Shown here: piece by piece, positions 6,256-48,630 of the stretch | Layout of the letters: each line of letters starts with the position of its first letter | How positions within the stretch are numbered: the stretch's first letter is position 1 | DNA from: a virus | Taxonomy: Duplodnaviria; Heunggongvirae; Uroviricota; Caudoviricetes | Strand: one strand, 5' to 3' | Length of the DNA stretch: 64,000 nt | IMG/VR virus record: IMGVR_UViG_3300029702_000002 | The notes under the pieces: model-generated | Seen by the model: only the letters and a program-made list of their open reading frames with translations | What the model was told of the DNA's origin: nothing | The model's database searches: none | Program-made: the position numbers and the translations under genes

Positions 6256-6927
6256 CTAATCATACTTTGAGGTATTTATAACCAGGATTTTGTTTGTATA
6301 AATCTTCTTAATATCCCATGTGACATTACCGGAATACCATTGACCGTTATATACTTGGTTTCCAGTTGCACCGGTCATAGTTACATAGACAGGTCTGTCG
6401 TAATCGGTTCGTCTATAGTTATAAACCCCAACCATAGCAGGCATTACCGCACACGGATACCCCACATCTATGGTAAATTGAGGGTCCGAAATAGTGATAA
6501 GTTTCGCATCAAGGGGCATCATCTCACCGTGATACACCATTGCGCCTGCGCTGTTATACATGGCAATGCCATAGCCAGAATGTGGTAACACCATATCAGA
6601 AAAAGCATAAACTGTTATTGTTCCGGGGCTACCATTTACCTGATGCAATCTGAGAGCATTGTATCCGTTACTATGCTCATGAATAAACATCATGTTCGCC
6701 TTATTACTGCTTTTTATGAAGAAAAAGCATGATTTGTTTGATGGGATTGATGTTTGAAAAACAGAACCTTTAGATGTAGACATTGTCCCTTTATTAATCA
6801 GATTTTGCGGAGTAAATTCTGGACTCATCCACAAACTTCCATCTGATTGAGTAATTGACATCCCGAACATAATTATCCCCAGTATGTGTATATGTAAGAA
6901 CCAAGCCCCGTATATAAATTTGACCAA
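6256..6927 (-). CDS. hypothetical protein (223 aa), possibly C-terminal part of a frameshifted gene
   Basis: ORF track; low-GC; overlaps upstream ORF 6873..7154 by 55 bp in another frame. Confidence 0.35.
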   Translation of the reverse strand: MVKFIYGAWFLHIHILGIIMFGMSITQSDGSLWMSPEFTPQNLINKGTMSTSKGSVFQTSIPSNKSCFFFIKSSNKANMMFIHEHSNGYNALRLHQVNGSPGTITVYAFSDMVLPHSGYGIAMYNSAGAMVYHGEMMPLDAKLITISDPQFTIDVGYPCAVMPAMVGVYNYRRTDYDRPVYVTMTGATGNQVYNGQWYSGNVTWDIKKIYTNKILVINTSKYD

Positions 6928-7154
6928 CTAACCGTATTTCCATTAATAGTAACTGTTGGAACAGGTAAATTAATGTAGTTGTCGTTGTTAAGAGGCATCA
7001 ATGACCACACGGCATGTAGCGATTTACCCGGTGGCGGATTGGAGTACGTCTTAGAGCCTGATGACGCAGTAAATCGATCAAGAAAAAAAATAGGAGTAAG
7101 GAAGCCAGTAACGTTAATTCCTTTATTGTTGTAAATCCCTGTACCGTATGCCAT
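6873..7154 (-). CDS. hypothetical protein (93 aa), possibly N-terminal part of a frameshifted gene
   Basis: ORF track; Gly/Asn/Thr-rich beta-type composition; same strand and contiguous with 6256..6927. Confidence 0.35.
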   Translation of the reverse strand: MAYGTGIYNNKGINVTGFLTPIFFLDRFTASSGSKTYSNPPPGKSLHAVWSLMPLNNDNYINLPVPTVTINGNTVSWSNLYTGLGSYIYTYWG

Positions 7155-7209
7155 TTTTCATCCTTGTTTTTTATCAACACAATATGGCCGATCATGCGGC
7201 CATATCAGA

Positions 7210-7779
7210 TCAATTAGAGCTTTGAAAGGCTTTGTGTGGCTGTGTTGCGAGGTTATGTCGATGGCTTAACTCACGCATCATGTCTTCAAGCCGACTCTTT
7301 GTGTCGTCGAGTTGGTCGGCCATTGCTCCCAAAAGCTGACGAACGGCCATCGGATCATCGCTGTTTAGTGATGGCATTTTATAACCCGCCTGAGAAGACA
7401 TAAGATTGAACGCAGACATCAACATCGTTAGAGAGGATTTAAGCCCAGCAATTTCACGATCTTTGCTGGCAATAATCGCCTCACTCTTGTTAGTGTCATC
7501 AGTTCGTTGAGTCTCGCTCACCATATCCAAAGTCGCCTGCAACTTATCAGCGCGCTCTTTTTCAGCAAGATAATGAACACCGAAATGATGTGCTAAAGCT
7601 ACAACCTGAGTTGGCTCTTCAAAGGTGGACTCAAAATTAAGTGCTGTAACCACTCTCTCAAATATGGAAACGTCTTCTATTCCTCGAAGAATGGCTAACA
7701 TTTTGACCAGTTCATTAGCATCCATTTCTTCGAATAAGGCGTTTTGTTCATCAGCTATCGCTTTGCATTTCTTGCACAT
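7210..7779 (-). CDS. hypothetical protein (189 aa)
   Basis: ORF track; conserved RBS/upstream motif at 7780-7815. Confidence 0.5.
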   Translation of the reverse strand: MCKKCKAIADEQNALFEEMDANELVKMLAILRGIEDVSIFERVVTALNFESTFEEPTQVVALAHHFGVHYLAEKERADKLQATLDMVSETQRTDDTNKSEAIIASKDREIAGLKSSLTMLMSAFNLMSSQAGYKMPSLNSDDPMAVRQLLGAMADQLDDTKSRLEDMMRELSHRHNLATQPHKAFQSSN

Positions 7780-9442: not shown

Positions 9443-10090
9443 TTACTGCTTGTTGTAAACAAAACCAATATCTTTCTTGTGAGGCATATCTGCTGCGGAA
9501 AAAGCTGCGATCTTCGCGAGTCGATCACATATTTCATTTTCACGATGCCCGGCGTGACCTTTAACCCACTTCCAGCGAACATTATGTCGACTTGCGGCCT
9601 CATCCAGACGCTTCCACAGATCAACATTCTTTACCGGTTTTTTGTCAGAAGTCATCCATCCATTGCGTTTCCACCATTTCATCCACTGTGTCATGCCGTT
9701 TTTCAGATACTGGCTATCAGAGTGCAAAATAACGTTGCATGGATATTTCAAACGCTCCAGCCCGATAAGTGCCCCCATCATCTCCATGCGGTTATTGGTG
9801 GTGCTATGAAAACCATCTGAGAACTCGCGTTCCTCACCACGATACTGGAGAACTATACCGTAACCGCCCGGGCCACCCGGATTTTTAAGGCAAGAGCCAT
9901 CACTGAAGATTTTCACGGTTTTAAGCTGGGGATTGAACTCTACGACAGGCGTTGTGGAATTGGTGCGGGGAGAATTTTTGTTTTTGGCTTTTTTGCGAGT
10001 TTTTTCTTGCGATCGGGCTGGTGTCTTCGTCGTCATATAAACTCCTGAATCAAGCGCCGCGCCGATTTTTTTCCTCGCGCGTGCGCACAC
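9443..10090 (-). CDS. rnhA: ribonuclease H (RNase HI family); true start probably internal Met near 10036
   Basis: VKIFSDGSC...GYGIVL...VILHSDSQY...KGHAGH..NE.CD motifs of RNase HI. Confidence 0.85.
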
Positions 10091-10624
10091 GCGTGCGTGT
10101 TAATAATTATTAAAATAAACAAATTACTTCCCAGAACAGGTTTTTATAAACCTGAACTGAACGAACGAAGTGAGTGAAGTTCACCTCGAACGAAGTGAGA
10201 GGTTGTCTTTTCAGGTAATACTCTCCCAGGGAGGTGAGTATAAAAATCCCTCACCAACCTGGTCGTTTCATAACCTGAAAAGTTATGGTCTAAGTCTACT
10301 GCCAGCTTAGACTTGGGAAGTTATGGATGACAGCACCCCAGAACCGAGATCTTCCCACACTTTATGAAGGGGAGTACTGGATTCAACCTCTCGAAACACC
10401 CCAGACTCGACAATCATAAAGTGACCCTTGTCTCCGCTCACTTTGGTTCCCCCTTCCCCGACACCTAAACGGCACCAGTTCTACGCTGGTAGTGAGCTTT
10501 TTTTAAACCTGACGCCAGTGACGCTTACCCCCACCCATCAGGTCGAGTCTCCAGTCTACGACTGGAAACTATCAGATCTTAGCACTTACAATTCACTTTA
10601 TGAATAGTTTGTACTTATCTATCA

Positions 10625-10876
10625 TTATGATTGATTATTTTCTCTACCATGTAGTTGAACATTCAAGGCAAACACCTCATTGATCAACTCACCTAAAAGC
10701 TGTTCAACAAGTTCGCGATGCTCGCCAAGATGCAAGCACTTAATTGCCCATTCGTACAAGTTGAAAGCCTGCTCACGATCTTTCATCATTTCACGAGCCT
10801 GGGCCAGAAAATCGCTCTCTACGAGCGCAACGACATTAGTCGGGTATGACATGTTGGTTTCCTTAAAGTGGTTCAT
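10625..10876 (-). CDS. hypothetical protein (83 aa)
   Basis: ORF track. Confidence 0.4.
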   Translation of the reverse strand: MNHFKETNMSYPTNVVALVESDFLAQAREMMKDREQAFNLYEWAIKCLHLGEHRELVEQLLGELINEVFALNVQLHGRENNQS

Positions 10877-10957
10877 AAAATCGATTTTAAAGCGTCTGGG
10901 AAGGGGTTCTAGTGGATTCTGTAGTGATGTTCAGGTCTGGAGTCTCTGATACAAAAC

Positions 10958-11016
10958 AGCCTGCTTCCGTATATTAATAATTAATATGTAGTTATTTATA
11001 TATACAGAAGCAGGCT
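10958..11016. repeat. ~60-bp palindromic element (copy 1 of 2): GCCTGCTTCCGTATAT ... ATATACAGAAGCAGGC around an AT-rich spacer
   Basis: Imperfect 16-bp inverted repeat; near-identical element at 58256-58312. Confidence 0.6.
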
Positions 11017-11037
11017 AATTACAGACGCCAGAACAAA

Positions 11038-11631
11038 CTAAGCAGCCTTCTTTGATGGTCTTTTTTTCCTGATCACATTCGCAGGATCATACCCTCCCAG
11101 ACTTTTCATGACGTCCAAAGGGATCTTGCTTATAGAGTGCCCAGCGTCCTGACAGAATCCTCGAAAAACAACGAGCATACTGCCACCTGGGTTGATGTTT
11201 ACTTCTACCTGACCCAGATTGACGTCAGGCTCGACAAACGCTACGCGGCCACCAGACAGAATAATCGTCTCATTCGCACACTCTGTTGCACGCTCATACC
11301 ACTTTGTATCTAGGGATTGAGGAATTAGCATCACTGTTGTAACTCCGCGAGCCTGCTCACGTATAGCCGCATCAATCCAGGGGGAGATTTTGGAGTAGGG
11401 TGGATTGAGGAAGGCAATTGTACCTGGCTGTCCCCATTCAGATTTCAAAGCATCACGCTCAACGCCTATGAAATTAGGCAGCTTTGCATTGTCCTTGTTG
11501 CAGGCAACGTCAACATCAAATGTCACTCCAAGATAACGTTGAATGGCAGAAAACAGCCAGTCAGGTGTTCTCCAGAGGTCACGAAGAGAGTTGTCGCGCT
11601 TTCGCTGTTTGATTTTTTCGGCTGCAATCAT
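11038..11631 (-). CDS. phage Dam-type DNA N6-adenine methyltransferase
   Basis: LWRTPDWLF ... FDVDVACN ... FLNPPY motifs. Confidence 0.8.
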   Translation of the reverse strand: MIAAEKIKQRKRDNSLRDLWRTPDWLFSAIQRYLGVTFDVDVACNKDNAKLPNFIGVERDALKSEWGQPGTIAFLNPPYSKISPWIDAAIREQARGVTTVMLIPQSLDTKWYERATECANETIILSGGRVAFVEPDVNLGQVEVNINPGGSMLVVFRGFCQDAGHSISKIPLDVMKSLGGYDPANVIRKKRPSKKAA

Positions 11632-26759: not shown

Positions 26760-26985
26760 TATTCACATATCCACAGGATAGATCCTAATAAAGAGATCCA
26801 TAGATAGATCCTTGTATAGATCAAATAAGATCCCCGATCGCTGTAAGCCGCGCCACGACTGGTCTGAAGCCATGTTCATGTATGCTGTCAGCGGTAATTG
26901 ATAGTCTGTCAGCGGTTCACCGTATGCTGCCAACTGTTTTTGGTATTCTGTCAGCGGCAAATCAAGTATGCTGTCAGCGGTTGAA
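26760..26985. promoter_or_regulatory. plasmid-type replication origin region: DnaA box, GATC cluster, five iterons
   Basis: ATATCCACA at 26767-26775; six GATC sites within 26782-26839; TATGCTGTCAGCGGT-like repeats at 26881-26981. Confidence 0.7.
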
Positions 26986-27000
26986 TGACAAAGGTGTCCA

Positions 27001-28096
27001 CATGTCCACAAAAAATAAAAAAGGTAAAAATAACAAAGAAGTAGAAGATAATCTCGACAACTTTGAAGAAGGTTCCCTTGAATTGTACACAGGGGAACTT
27101 GTCCCTAATAGCAACAATACAGTCCAACCAATTGCGTTGATGCGGCTGGGATTGTTCGTGCCCACGCTCAAGGGGACAAAATACAGCAAGCGTAACAAGC
27201 CAAATGAGATCGATGCTTCAAAGGAGCTTGTTCAGCTCGAAGTAGCCCGTTCTGAAGGCTATTCCGATATCAAGATAACCGGTCCTCGTCTCGACATGGA
27301 TCATGATTTCAAAACGTGGGTGGGCGTTGTGCGTTCGCTGGCAGAATACGGCGAACCTAACGGTCGTGTCGAGTTAAGCATCACGAAATTTGCGAAGTTT
27401 TGTGGCTATCCATCGTCACAGATCCGCAAAACACTCCGCGACCGGCTTACAAACAGTCTTTTGAAGATCATGCGTACAACTCTGTCTTTCCAGAGAACGT
27501 ATGAAGAAAAGAACGTCGACGGCTCTAACAAGATCTCGCTTCTGATGGTGCACCTCATCAATAGCGTGGACTACAACGAGCAGAAAGATACGGTGGTGTT
27601 CTATGCAGAACCGAAGCTGGCCGAACTATATCGCTTTGACCATAAGGTTCTTTTGCAGTTAAAGGTTATCAATAAGCTACCACGCAAAGAAACAGCACAG
27701 GCTCTGTACACCTTCATCGAAAGTCTTCCAACCAAGCCTGCGCCGGTGTCGCTTGCTCGATTGCGTGCGCGACTCAATTTGAGTAGCAGGAATGTCAGCT
27801 CGCAGAATCAGACTATACGCAACGGCTTAAAAGCTCTCCAAGATTTGGGTTATCTCGAATACAGCGAGATTAAACGAGGGCGGTCGATCTATATCCAGAT
27901 TCACAGCCGCAATCCAAAACTCAAAGTCGCACCGCCAAAACCTGAAGACATCGAACCCAAAAAACTAGATGAGAAAGCTGGGGAAATTGATGCCAAACAG
28001 AACATTATCAACAAGATAACCGAACTTTCGCAGAATTTGACGCCTGAAAATATCAAGATGATTGAGATCCTTTCCAATAGTCTCAAACTGCTTTGA
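27001..28096 (+). CDS. repA: iteron-binding plasmid replication initiator RepA; start moved to ATG at 27001
   Basis: ORF 26882..28096 trimmed because its 5' extension overlaps the iterons; flanked by iteron arrays; recalled resemblance to P1/RepFIB RepA (NSNNTVQP..ALMRLG). Confidence 0.8.
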
Positions 28097-48330: not shown

Positions 48331-48417
48331 TGGCGGAGAGTAATGGAATCGAACCATCATCGCTTGCGCAATGGGACGGTTTTCAAGACCGCTTGAGCAC
48401 CATGCTCCCTACTCTCC
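48331..48417 (-). tRNA. tRNA-Ser (anticodon UGA), class II with long variable arm
   Basis: Manual fold: acceptor GGAGAGT/ACTCTCC, anticodon loop CUUGAAA, long variable arm, T-loop TTCGATT, encoded CCA. Confidence 0.75.
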
Positions 48418-48630
48418 AATTGTTGTGGTGCCGGGTGCTTCCCGGTGTCCTTTGGCTGGTTATCCACCGTGGACGGAGCCAATAGTCATCACAAAGGATC
48501 AATATAACCATTTCCCCGCGTGCGCTTAGCCGCATTCACCACAACGAAAAGAGCACTGTATGACGTTTGCACGGACTTACGCTTCAAACAGGGCAGTCTC
48601 GGCGGTTCTCAATGCTCTTTCCTGTTGTGT

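Follow-up and report, generated by a model that had tools for sequence, protein, structure and literature searches.

What is encoded in the long intergenic stretch (10624-10037) that precedes rnhA, the gene of RNase HI, in the IMG/VR virus record IMGVR_UViG_3300029702_000002 (Caudoviricetes), of which 64,000 nucleotides (nt) of DNA were analysed (hereafter, the window)? No record annotates a feature of known function in this stretch, and in the phage Cyrano a 44-amino-acid (aa) 'hypothetical protein', CYRAN_81, is called inside it. The original prediction, made from the nucleotides alone, described about 500 base pairs (bp) of structured non-coding sequence upstream of the RNase H gene, and proposed that it might act in cis-regulation, encode a small RNA or be an origin-like element. 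Such a region is real, as judged by its conservation, its covariation and the lack of a conserved reading frame, and the minus strand is the informative one. The RNA option is upheld, with a promoter of its own, a 5' hairpin, about 12 covarying helices and accumulation in lysogens, but at ~445 nt the RNA is not small; the other two options are weakened or unsupported. The reading preferred here, with about an even chance of being right, is that the minus strand of 10584-10125 constitutes an independent gene whose product, a stable, highly structured non-coding RNA of ~445 nt, is specific to phage-plasmids of the SSU5/pHCM2 type and acts in trans in the plasmid state.

Over positions 9900-10900, the window shares 99% identity with Escherichia phage CMS-2020a and 98% with PhiR41_1 and Cyrano, and Salmonella phage SSU5 and Klebsiella phage-plasmids match it at 80-85%; the window is therefore an Escherichia coli member of the SSU5/pHCM2 phage-plasmid group. 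For conservation, the window was aligned with six SSU5-like relatives and a divergent one, a plasmid of Cronobacter sp. JZ38 (L003). Between the window and the SSU5-like relatives, 10130-10545 is 92-100% identical, versus 60-88% (mostly 70-85%) for the flanking coding sequences, so that the element is under stronger constraint than the genes on either side. The relatives in which the region is conserved come from E. coli, Salmonella, Klebsiella, Enterobacter and Cronobacter. In PLSDB the element is found in 687 plasmids (of Klebsiella, Escherichia, Enterobacter, Salmonella, Citrobacter and Cronobacter), and it is present in 232 of 5,426 complete E. coli genomes (4%), with rarely more than one copy per genome (median 1, maximum 3) and plasmid-borne in 232 of 234 places. 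Nothing is annotated beneath the five best E. coli matches shown.

The element does not code for protein. The only open reading frame (ORF) ever annotated in it, CYRAN_81 (window 10441..10307, minus strand, 44 aa, GTG start), is disrupted by indels of 1-2 nt or by an in-frame stop in eight relatives (L005, L016, L029, L032, L044, L048, L049 and L080), and in L003 the frame has neither start nor stop. Variable columns are distributed over its three codon positions as 10:8:10 within the clade and 19:22:18 against L003. A conserved coding frame was sought among the relatives and none exists, in agreement with the original prediction that no plausible ORF is present. Few divergent homologues came to light: a search of genome contigs by way of the adjacent 76-aa protein led to two Kluyvera loci only, and BLAST with the L003 version, tblastn in phages and a second viral scan yielded just three more L003-like sequences. 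These searches added little, and the deep covariation described below therefore rests on one lineage.

Several hairpins with stems of 6-7 bp had been predicted; many hairpins are present, and both strands of the region fold better than shuffled sequences (z = -3.5 and -4.0). In an alignment of 56 sequences (A2), RNAalifold and manual curation gave 102 pairs in 12 helices, of which P1 to P11 make up a structured core (10544-10207, minus strand) whose invariant unpaired blocks include GAUGGGUGG, ACCAGCGnAGAAC, GGGGAAGGGGGAACCAAAG and GAUCUCGGUUCUGGGGU. Standard pairs occupy 98.6% of the cells of this structure. Changes on both sides of a pair (compensatory changes) are seen at 24 pairs, distributed over nine of the 12 helices, versus 8.2 +/- 1.7 in shuffles (none of 500 reaching that number), and a control in which partners were slid by 1-3 columns gave 3-6 compensatory pairs. 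A free search, for conserved helices of 5 bp or longer, turned up 11 in which two or more pairs covary, versus a mean of 1.1 and a maximum of 3 in column-permuted alignments. G-U is the commonest state of 12 pairs; these would be A-C mismatches on the plus strand, and the folded strand is therefore the minus strand, the same as that of the flanking genes. Thus, covariation supports the curated fold, and the element is a minus-strand RNA of about 12 covarying helices.

Several further pairings in A2 are not nested in this fold. Columns 36-43/305-312, 57-61/281-285, 121-125/325-329 and 216-221/304-309 have at least two covarying pairs each, and columns 112-117/218-223 (GGAACC/GGUUCU; AGAAUC/GAUUCU in L003) have one. 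These could be tertiary contacts, a conformational switch, intermolecular pairing or a coincidence of a single lineage. Helices P2 (columns 61-67/120-126; ~10497-10436) and P11 (308-313/325-330; ~10255-10233) share their strand sequences, CUCAC/GUGAG, and in the L003 clade each of them has been rewritten, so that strand-swapped pairings between them covary too; their likeness may stem from a switch of conformation, from pairing between molecules or from an internal duplication long ago.

Upstream of the core lies an otherwise hypervariable stretch in which the sole conserved block is TGnTAnnAT, present in every clade including L003. In the window it reads TGcTAAGAT (10584-10576, minus strand), an extended -10 element; the spacing would place a weak -35 element, TTCATA, at 10604-10599 (minus strand) and the start of transcription near 10570. 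With a match at 8 of 12 positions in addition to the TG, this promoter did not make the list of a generic promoter scan. About 10 nt past the extended -10 is a 5'-terminal hairpin, P0 (TCCAGTC-GTA-GACTGGA, 10566-10550, minus strand), which is stable on its own (z = -4.9). Its sequence is wholly different in each clade and yet always pairs (CCGGA/TCCGG, GCTGGCAGAT/ATCTGCCAGC, GATTTCGA/TCGAAATC, GTCATT/AATGGC). A conserved -10 followed by a hairpin that is conserved in structure only has the look, from the alignment, of a transcript that starts on its own account and is protected by a 5' stem-loop.

The long P9-P11 arm is followed on its 3' side by three hairpins and then by a conserved tail. 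H1 (10202-10184, minus strand), with the stem CCUC/GAGG closing the loop UCACUUCGUUC, is invariant in the family, and H2 (10183-10153, minus strand) has a stem UGAACU/AGUUCA around a second copy of the loop (10173-10163), with three compensatory pairs against the L003 clade (GAAACC/GGUUUC). The two loops account for the predicted direct repeat GAACGAAGTGAG, which is found at 10163-10174 and 10188-10199 and whose 11-mer core occurs exactly twice in the 64 kb, both times in this element. The predicted palindrome GTGAAGTTCAC is found at 10174-10184. It forms the stem of GAGGUGA/UCACUUC, a hairpin that competes with H1 and H2 and is thermodynamically favoured over them; the L003 counterpart of this alternative fold is GAGG-GAAA-CCUC. 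The variable hairpin H3 (CAGGUUU-AUAA-AAACCUG), followed by the conserved tail UUCUGGGAAGUAA, spans 10154-10124 (minus strand), and its stem varies with pairing kept (CAGGG/CCCUG in L007). The similarity between L003 and two L003-like contigs (L092 and L094) ends right after UCUGGGUA, the counterpart of the tail, at an inserted gene; from these comparisons the tail near 10124 is probably the 3' boundary of the RNA. A scan for a canonical terminator downstream of the tail found none.

Beyond the tail is an AT-rich spacer (10101-10123) of poorly conserved sequence, and then the predicted alternating purine-pyrimidine tract CGCGCGTGCGCACACGCGTGCGTG (10076-10099), which ends in a conserved CGCGCGAGG (10081-10073) and is followed by A7 (10072-10066). 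The tract was considered as a structured element or a terminator and rejected, its folding energy being no better than that of shuffles (z = -1.2; +1.0 in SSU5). Past the tail, CGCGCGAGG and the A-rich run are the only parts kept across clades; in L003 and L092 they persist despite a different downstream gene, which suggests that 10066-10123 belongs to the element. The limits of the unit are thus revised to ~10584 (promoter) and ~10125, plus the conserved CGCGCGAGG and A-run at 10081-10066.

Evidence of expression, the check that RNA sequencing (RNA-seq) was to provide, comes from a published re-analysis of RNA-seq of strain LF82 on the phage-plasmid Cyrano, in which CYRAN_81 is listed as a 'moron' 12-fold above local background (PMC9928086). 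In LB, CYRAN_81 has 117 normalised units versus 6-10 for CYRAN_79, CYRAN_80, CYRAN_82 and CYRAN_83 (PMC9928086, S1 table), and over five conditions its level (log2 6.8-10.4) tracks that of the putative repressor CYRAN_45 (6.4-10.4) (PMC9928086); rnhA lies ~12-fold below the element. With a high signal for CYRAN_81 and low signals for its neighbours, the RNA therefore builds up in lysogens, to about the level of the putative repressor, at a time when the early genes beside it are silent.

Two other genes stand out in the same lysogen transcriptome: CYRAN_43 (OV696614.1, 40268-40822, 'hypothetical protein'), 723-fold above background at ~7,000 normalised units, and CYRAN_40 (OV696614.1, 39144-39356), at ~150. 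Either may represent another abundant RNA or moron of this type of phage-plasmid.

The RNA belongs to none of the families that were searched. At the gathering score, Rfam 15 matched only two tRNAs in the whole window, and at E <= 10 its matches in 9900-11100 were of the microRNA or small nucleolar RNA type and at chance level (best E = 0.022). The Rfam families, among them C4, RNAI, ROOL, GOLLD, group I and II introns, RNase P, 6S and tmRNA, gave no covariance-model match to the element, and no tRNA or tmRNA lies within the region of the element. In the rest of the 64-kb window, complementary 12-mers that could mark antisense targets numbered 2, versus 3.45 in shuffles, and no complementary copy of the loop was found in the window. 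The searchable literature held no match to the loop sequence and nothing on an RNA in SSU5 or pHCM2 elements.

The loop shared by H1 and H2 recurs far outside this group. IMG/VR was scanned for CCTCTCACTTNGTTCGAGG and for DCTCTCACTTCGTTCGAGH, and metagenomes for CTCTCACTTCGTTCGAG, and a hairpin was counted when TCACTTCGTTC formed the loop and the stem (3-16 bp) extended past the searched bases. Beyond the SSU5-like loci, at least 173 distinct hairpins with the 11-nt loop TCACTTCGTTC were found on viral and metagenome contigs, at least 73 of them in a soil family with a shared stem; the remaining stems are unrelated. The loci with the hairpin are window 10153-10202, L015, L056, L061, L069, L081, L096-L126 and L129-L248. 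Position 6 of the loop is free (U, A or C), and for a hairpin with any stem the loop is also written UCACUNCGUUC. In a sister family A3/U9 becomes G3/C9, an exchange that suggests an inner mini-stem of two pairs closing a triloop.

The contexts of these hairpins are varied. Five phage loci of at least four lineages carry the hairpin within an initiator gene, in frame (..LTSFE..) on the coding strand of the interdomain linker: L015 (Pfam Phage_rep_O, 6e-26; followed by a DnaC/IstB-like loader), L108 (phrog_270, 3.6e-33), L126 (phrog_16167, 8e-43), L119 (7e-20, with the same stem as L126) and L113 (a weak match, 2e-4). In L015, L108 and L113 it comes after iteron-like repeats and an AT-rich stretch, and ori-lambda lies in the same place, within gene O (PMC3349717). 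In a JBD44-type initiator, iterons are present and the motif was not found. At least five copies sit directly behind the 3' end of a tRNA gene, and in 5/5 the hairpin and the tRNA are on opposite strands; REP-like arrays in soil hold at least 73 copies, together with inverted sister hairpins; and in some loci (L056, L061 and L098, for example) the hairpin precedes an intrinsic terminator. Copies within a contig are co-oriented in 8/9 viral loci and in 10/14 metagenome loci among the matches listed, their orientation relative to genes differs between genomes, and the wobbles in their stems (0 G-T versus 3 A-C) are uninformative as to the strand. An origin-specific hairpin was considered and rejected, the metagenome scan having shown copies beside tRNA genes and in REP-like arrays; with contexts so varied, the hairpin is a promiscuous conserved-loop module and not an origin-specific signal. 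Rfam found no family other than tRNAs in the unrelated loci that bear it, no close cultured relatives of the phages concerned were found, and with neither an Rfam family nor a literature match the hairpin appears to be undescribed.

One of these loci offers a parallel that was counted in favour of the preferred reading. In an unrelated phage group, L081 (~6890-7470) and the homologous L065 and L035 have a non-coding region of ~500 nt between oppositely oriented genes, with 7 compensatory and 18 one-sided changes on the strand of the motif versus 5 and 6 on the other strand. Its hairpins show covariation, and in two of the three sequences a whole hairpin is inserted. The same conserved-loop hairpin stands near its end, followed by a terminator-like stem. 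Possibly, then, this region is another large structured RNA that carries the same module at its end.

A different arrangement was noted in two related metagenomic phages, L105 (5168-7322) and L096 (2573-5287), in which the same cassette follows each short gene. It consists of a GC-rich hairpin (..CACCGCTTCGGCGGTG..), the conserved-loop hairpin and TAACTAACTAACTAA, which puts a stop codon in each of the three frames; within 2.2 kb of L105 there are four such cassettes, which all share one orientation.

In the preferred reading, the RNA would work in trans through its fold, by serving as a scaffold that binds protein or assembles with itself rather than by antisense pairing, and the terminal hairpins that display the loop UCACUUCGUUC might protect it or dock a widely conserved factor. 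In the plasmid (lysogenic) state it would most likely control replication of the phage DNA or early genes, or interfere with competing phages, roles suggested by its place in a cluster of replication genes and by the recurrence of the loop hairpin at initiator loci. That the RNA is kept while the genes downstream change argues for its independence: rnhA is missing from the L003 clade although the RNA is retained there, a gene of ~200 aa is inserted just past it in L092 and L094, and across clades the downstream gene is rnhA, a 103-aa ORF or the inserted ~200-aa gene. A bolder version, which is speculative and rather unlikely, would make it the first of a new class of large, ornate RNAs that phage-plasmids make in lysogeny, whose two terminal UCACUUCGUUC hairpins, a module found also at initiator loci of unrelated phages, engage a widely conserved replication or RNA-processing factor, so that it primes or licenses a lytic origin of its own or acts as a decoy for superinfecting phages. 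The 'inhibition phenotype' of oop-ori-lambda is a partial precedent (PMC3349717).

Several observations weigh against a self-standing, trans-acting RNA gene. Most of the double changes come from the L003 lineage (L003, L092 and L094) and from Klebsiella-type clades, nearly all of the deep covariation comes from a single divergent lineage with the other sequences at least 88% identical, and several alternative long-range pairings covary too, so that parts of the fold are unsettled. The RNA-seq signal was counted over a mis-annotated ORF of 135 nt, and its strand-specificity is unverified. The antisense search covered 64 kb of an element of ~108 kb. Lastly, the adjacency of rnhA, the G-runs and the AT-rich tract suit a primer or origin model equally well.

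In that model, which is doubtful though the best placed of the alternatives, the element is a transcribed lytic or second replication origin: the 3' end of a promoter-driven, structured and G-rich RNA would stay in a persistent R-loop, H1 and H2 would be extruded beside the AT-rich tract from the strand so displaced and serve for loading or priming, and the RNase HI encoded just downstream would trim the RNA into a primer. Origins of this general kind are ColE1 RNA II, the R-loop origins of T4 and the mitochondrial OH. The setting is suitable, since the element lies within a cluster of replication and nucleotide metabolism (Dam, DnaQ-like exonuclease, RNase H). Its G-runs number 2.5 per 100 nt, versus 0.4-1.0 in neighbouring genes, with a GC skew of +0.15 on the RNA-like strand, and an AT-rich tract and an A-run lie downstream of the hairpins. 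The extended -10 and the covarying minus-strand fold give what a ColE1-type system has, a promoter-driven, folded pre-primer RNA. The co-orientation of multi-copy hairpins, whatever the direction of the genes, also fits, and origin function keeps some probability because the repeat-bearing hairpin also sits in origin-type linkers of the initiator genes of other phages, after iteron-like repeats and an AT-rich stretch as in the layout of ori-lambda (PMC3349717).

Direct tests of the origin-like option were unfavourable. Tandem Repeats Finder reported neither tandem repeats nor iterons within 10040-10625, where the pair of loop motifs is the only repeat, and cumulative GC skew, which the original prediction had suggested examining, is monotonic through the element with no inflection. 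As regards a location like that of a lambda-type origin, an AT-rich tract is present at 10101-10123, and no initiator gene adjoins the element, its neighbours being the gene of the 76-aa protein and rnhA. A plasmid replicon with RepA and iterons already exists 16 kb away, at 26.9 kb. In consensus scans the only plus-strand promoter-like site (10563-10592) is directed away from the element and a plus-strand terminator-like site falls inside rnhA, scans of this kind being unable to exclude a countertranscript. The loss of rnhA in the L003 clade, the poor conservation of the AT-rich tract and the presence of the hairpin beside tRNA genes and in REP-like arrays also count against an origin, and a 5' hairpin conserved only in structure, together with accumulation in lysogens, suits a stable RNA better than a primer.

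Less probable still is an immunity or attenuator RNA encoded in a leader, made constitutively at the head of the early operon and blocking read-through into it (rnhA ... ant in SSU5) during lysogeny, in the manner of c4 of P1, CI of P4 and CA of N15. The RNA is directly upstream of, and in the same orientation as, the downstream genes, and in SSU5 the operon downstream of it includes an anti-repressor gene (ant). The ~12-fold drop in signal from the element to rnhA in lysogens, the mutually exclusive 3' folds (H1 with H2, or GAGGUGA/UCACUUC, with GAGG-GAAA-CCUC in L003) and the 11-mer duplicated inside the element also speak for it. Against this, the Rfam model of C4 and related models are without a match, the repeats are direct, and loops complementary to repeated operon targets, as in systems of the c4/CI/CA type, were not found within the window. 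A length of 445 nt and the accompanying complexity are far above those of known immunity RNAs, and a canonical terminator was not found. The differing downstream genes of the clades, which speak against a leader, also weaken the predicted cis-regulation of rnhA. The least credible alternative, that the transcript is the messenger of a small 'moron' protein because CYRAN_81 is a coding sequence in the annotation of Cyrano and a moron in PMC9928086, can practically be set aside in view of the frame broken in eight relatives and absent as an ORF from L003, the lack of third-position bias, the GTG start, and a nucleotide conservation above that of the neighbouring genes with compensatory changes in pairs.

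The genes that surround the RNA element are all on the minus strand. Upstream are those of a Dam-type methyltransferase (11631-11038; Pfam Dam, 2.5e-38) and of the 76-aa protein (10855-10625; phrog_5343, CYRAN_80 in Cyrano), whose function is unassigned and which is immediately upstream of the element in every relative read, L003 included. Downstream is rnhA (10036-9443; Pfam RNase_H, E = 8.7e-45). At a greater distance are the plasmid replicon, with a Rep3-type RepA initiator (26882-28096, plus strand; Pfam Rep3_N, 5e-9) and iterons of ~21 nt (26876-26981; repeats of 42-nt period) that overlap the start of its gene, and three tRNA genes, Ser-TGA, Thr-TGT and Asn-GTT (48331-48783, minus strand). 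Between the Dam and 76-aa protein genes is a near-perfect AT-rich hairpin of ~69 nt (AGCCTGCTTCTGTATATA...TATACGGAAGCAGGCT, 10953-11021), which gave the best of the chance-level Rfam matches (microRNA-like, E = 0.022) and might serve as a terminator in both directions or as a palindrome to which a protein binds.

Phage-plasmids of the SSU5/pHCM2 type are common in clinical Enterobacteriaceae, as the numbers of plasmids and E. coli genomes with the RNA illustrate, and the most conserved stretch of their early region is an RNA gene that lacks annotation and is active in the lysogen. Annotation pipelines now call this region empty, a hypothetical protein or a 'moron', and the mis-annotated CYRAN_81 is its sole trace. 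Because the hosts are genetically tractable and transcriptome data exist, the function of the RNA is directly testable, and the conserved-loop hairpin, as a widely distributed module of phage and bacterial genomes, merits study of its own.

Among known systems, the H1/H2 module can be compared with REP and BIME hairpins, which are likewise short, recurrent across genomes, intergenic, in either orientation and sometimes in inverted pairs. In classical REPs the whole palindrome is conserved, whereas here the loop is kept (TCACTTCGTTC, position 6 free) and the stems differ. Marks of REP and BIME elements are many extragenic copies, an associated RAYT transposase and a GTAG tetranucleotide; the window has only two adjacent copies of the loop, and soil metagenomes hold a REP-like family with the same loop. 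The copies in initiator genes also resemble the palindrome on the right side of lambdoid origins in coming after iterons and an AT-rich stretch; the lambda palindrome has a different loop.

As a whole, the RNA has points in common with ColE1 RNA II: a promoter ~0.5 kb upstream, a conserved, folded, G-rich transcript, a distal A-run with an AT-rich stretch, a link to RNase H and expression in the plasmid state. It differs in having no homology to RNA II and no RNA I-like unit that could be found, in the separate RepA/iteron origin and in the dispensability of rnhA in one clade. With the immunity RNAs (c4 of P1/P7, CI of P4, CA of N15) it shares expression in lysogeny, a position at the head of the early operon of a phage-plasmid and repeated short elements, but it is 5-6 times larger, has no complementary target repeats and does not match the C4 model of Rfam.

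The closest likeness in kind is to ROOL and GOLLD, large structured RNAs that phages and prophages carry and to which no function has been assigned. Their models are silent here both at the gathering score and at E <= 10, and the RNA of the window is smaller (~445 nt), confined to one group of Enterobacteriaceae phage-plasmids and 38 kb away from the tRNA genes. Like them, it has hundreds of nucleotides and many covarying helices, belongs to temperate phages or mobile elements, is more conserved than the genes around it and has no known associated protein. Bacterial RNAs of this size and complexity are rare, and have historically turned out to be ribozymes, cores of ribonucleoproteins or self-assembling cages. 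Found neither in Rfam nor in the searchable literature, the RNA is best classed as a family that is new in itself but of a kind already known, that of large structured RNAs from temperate mobile elements.

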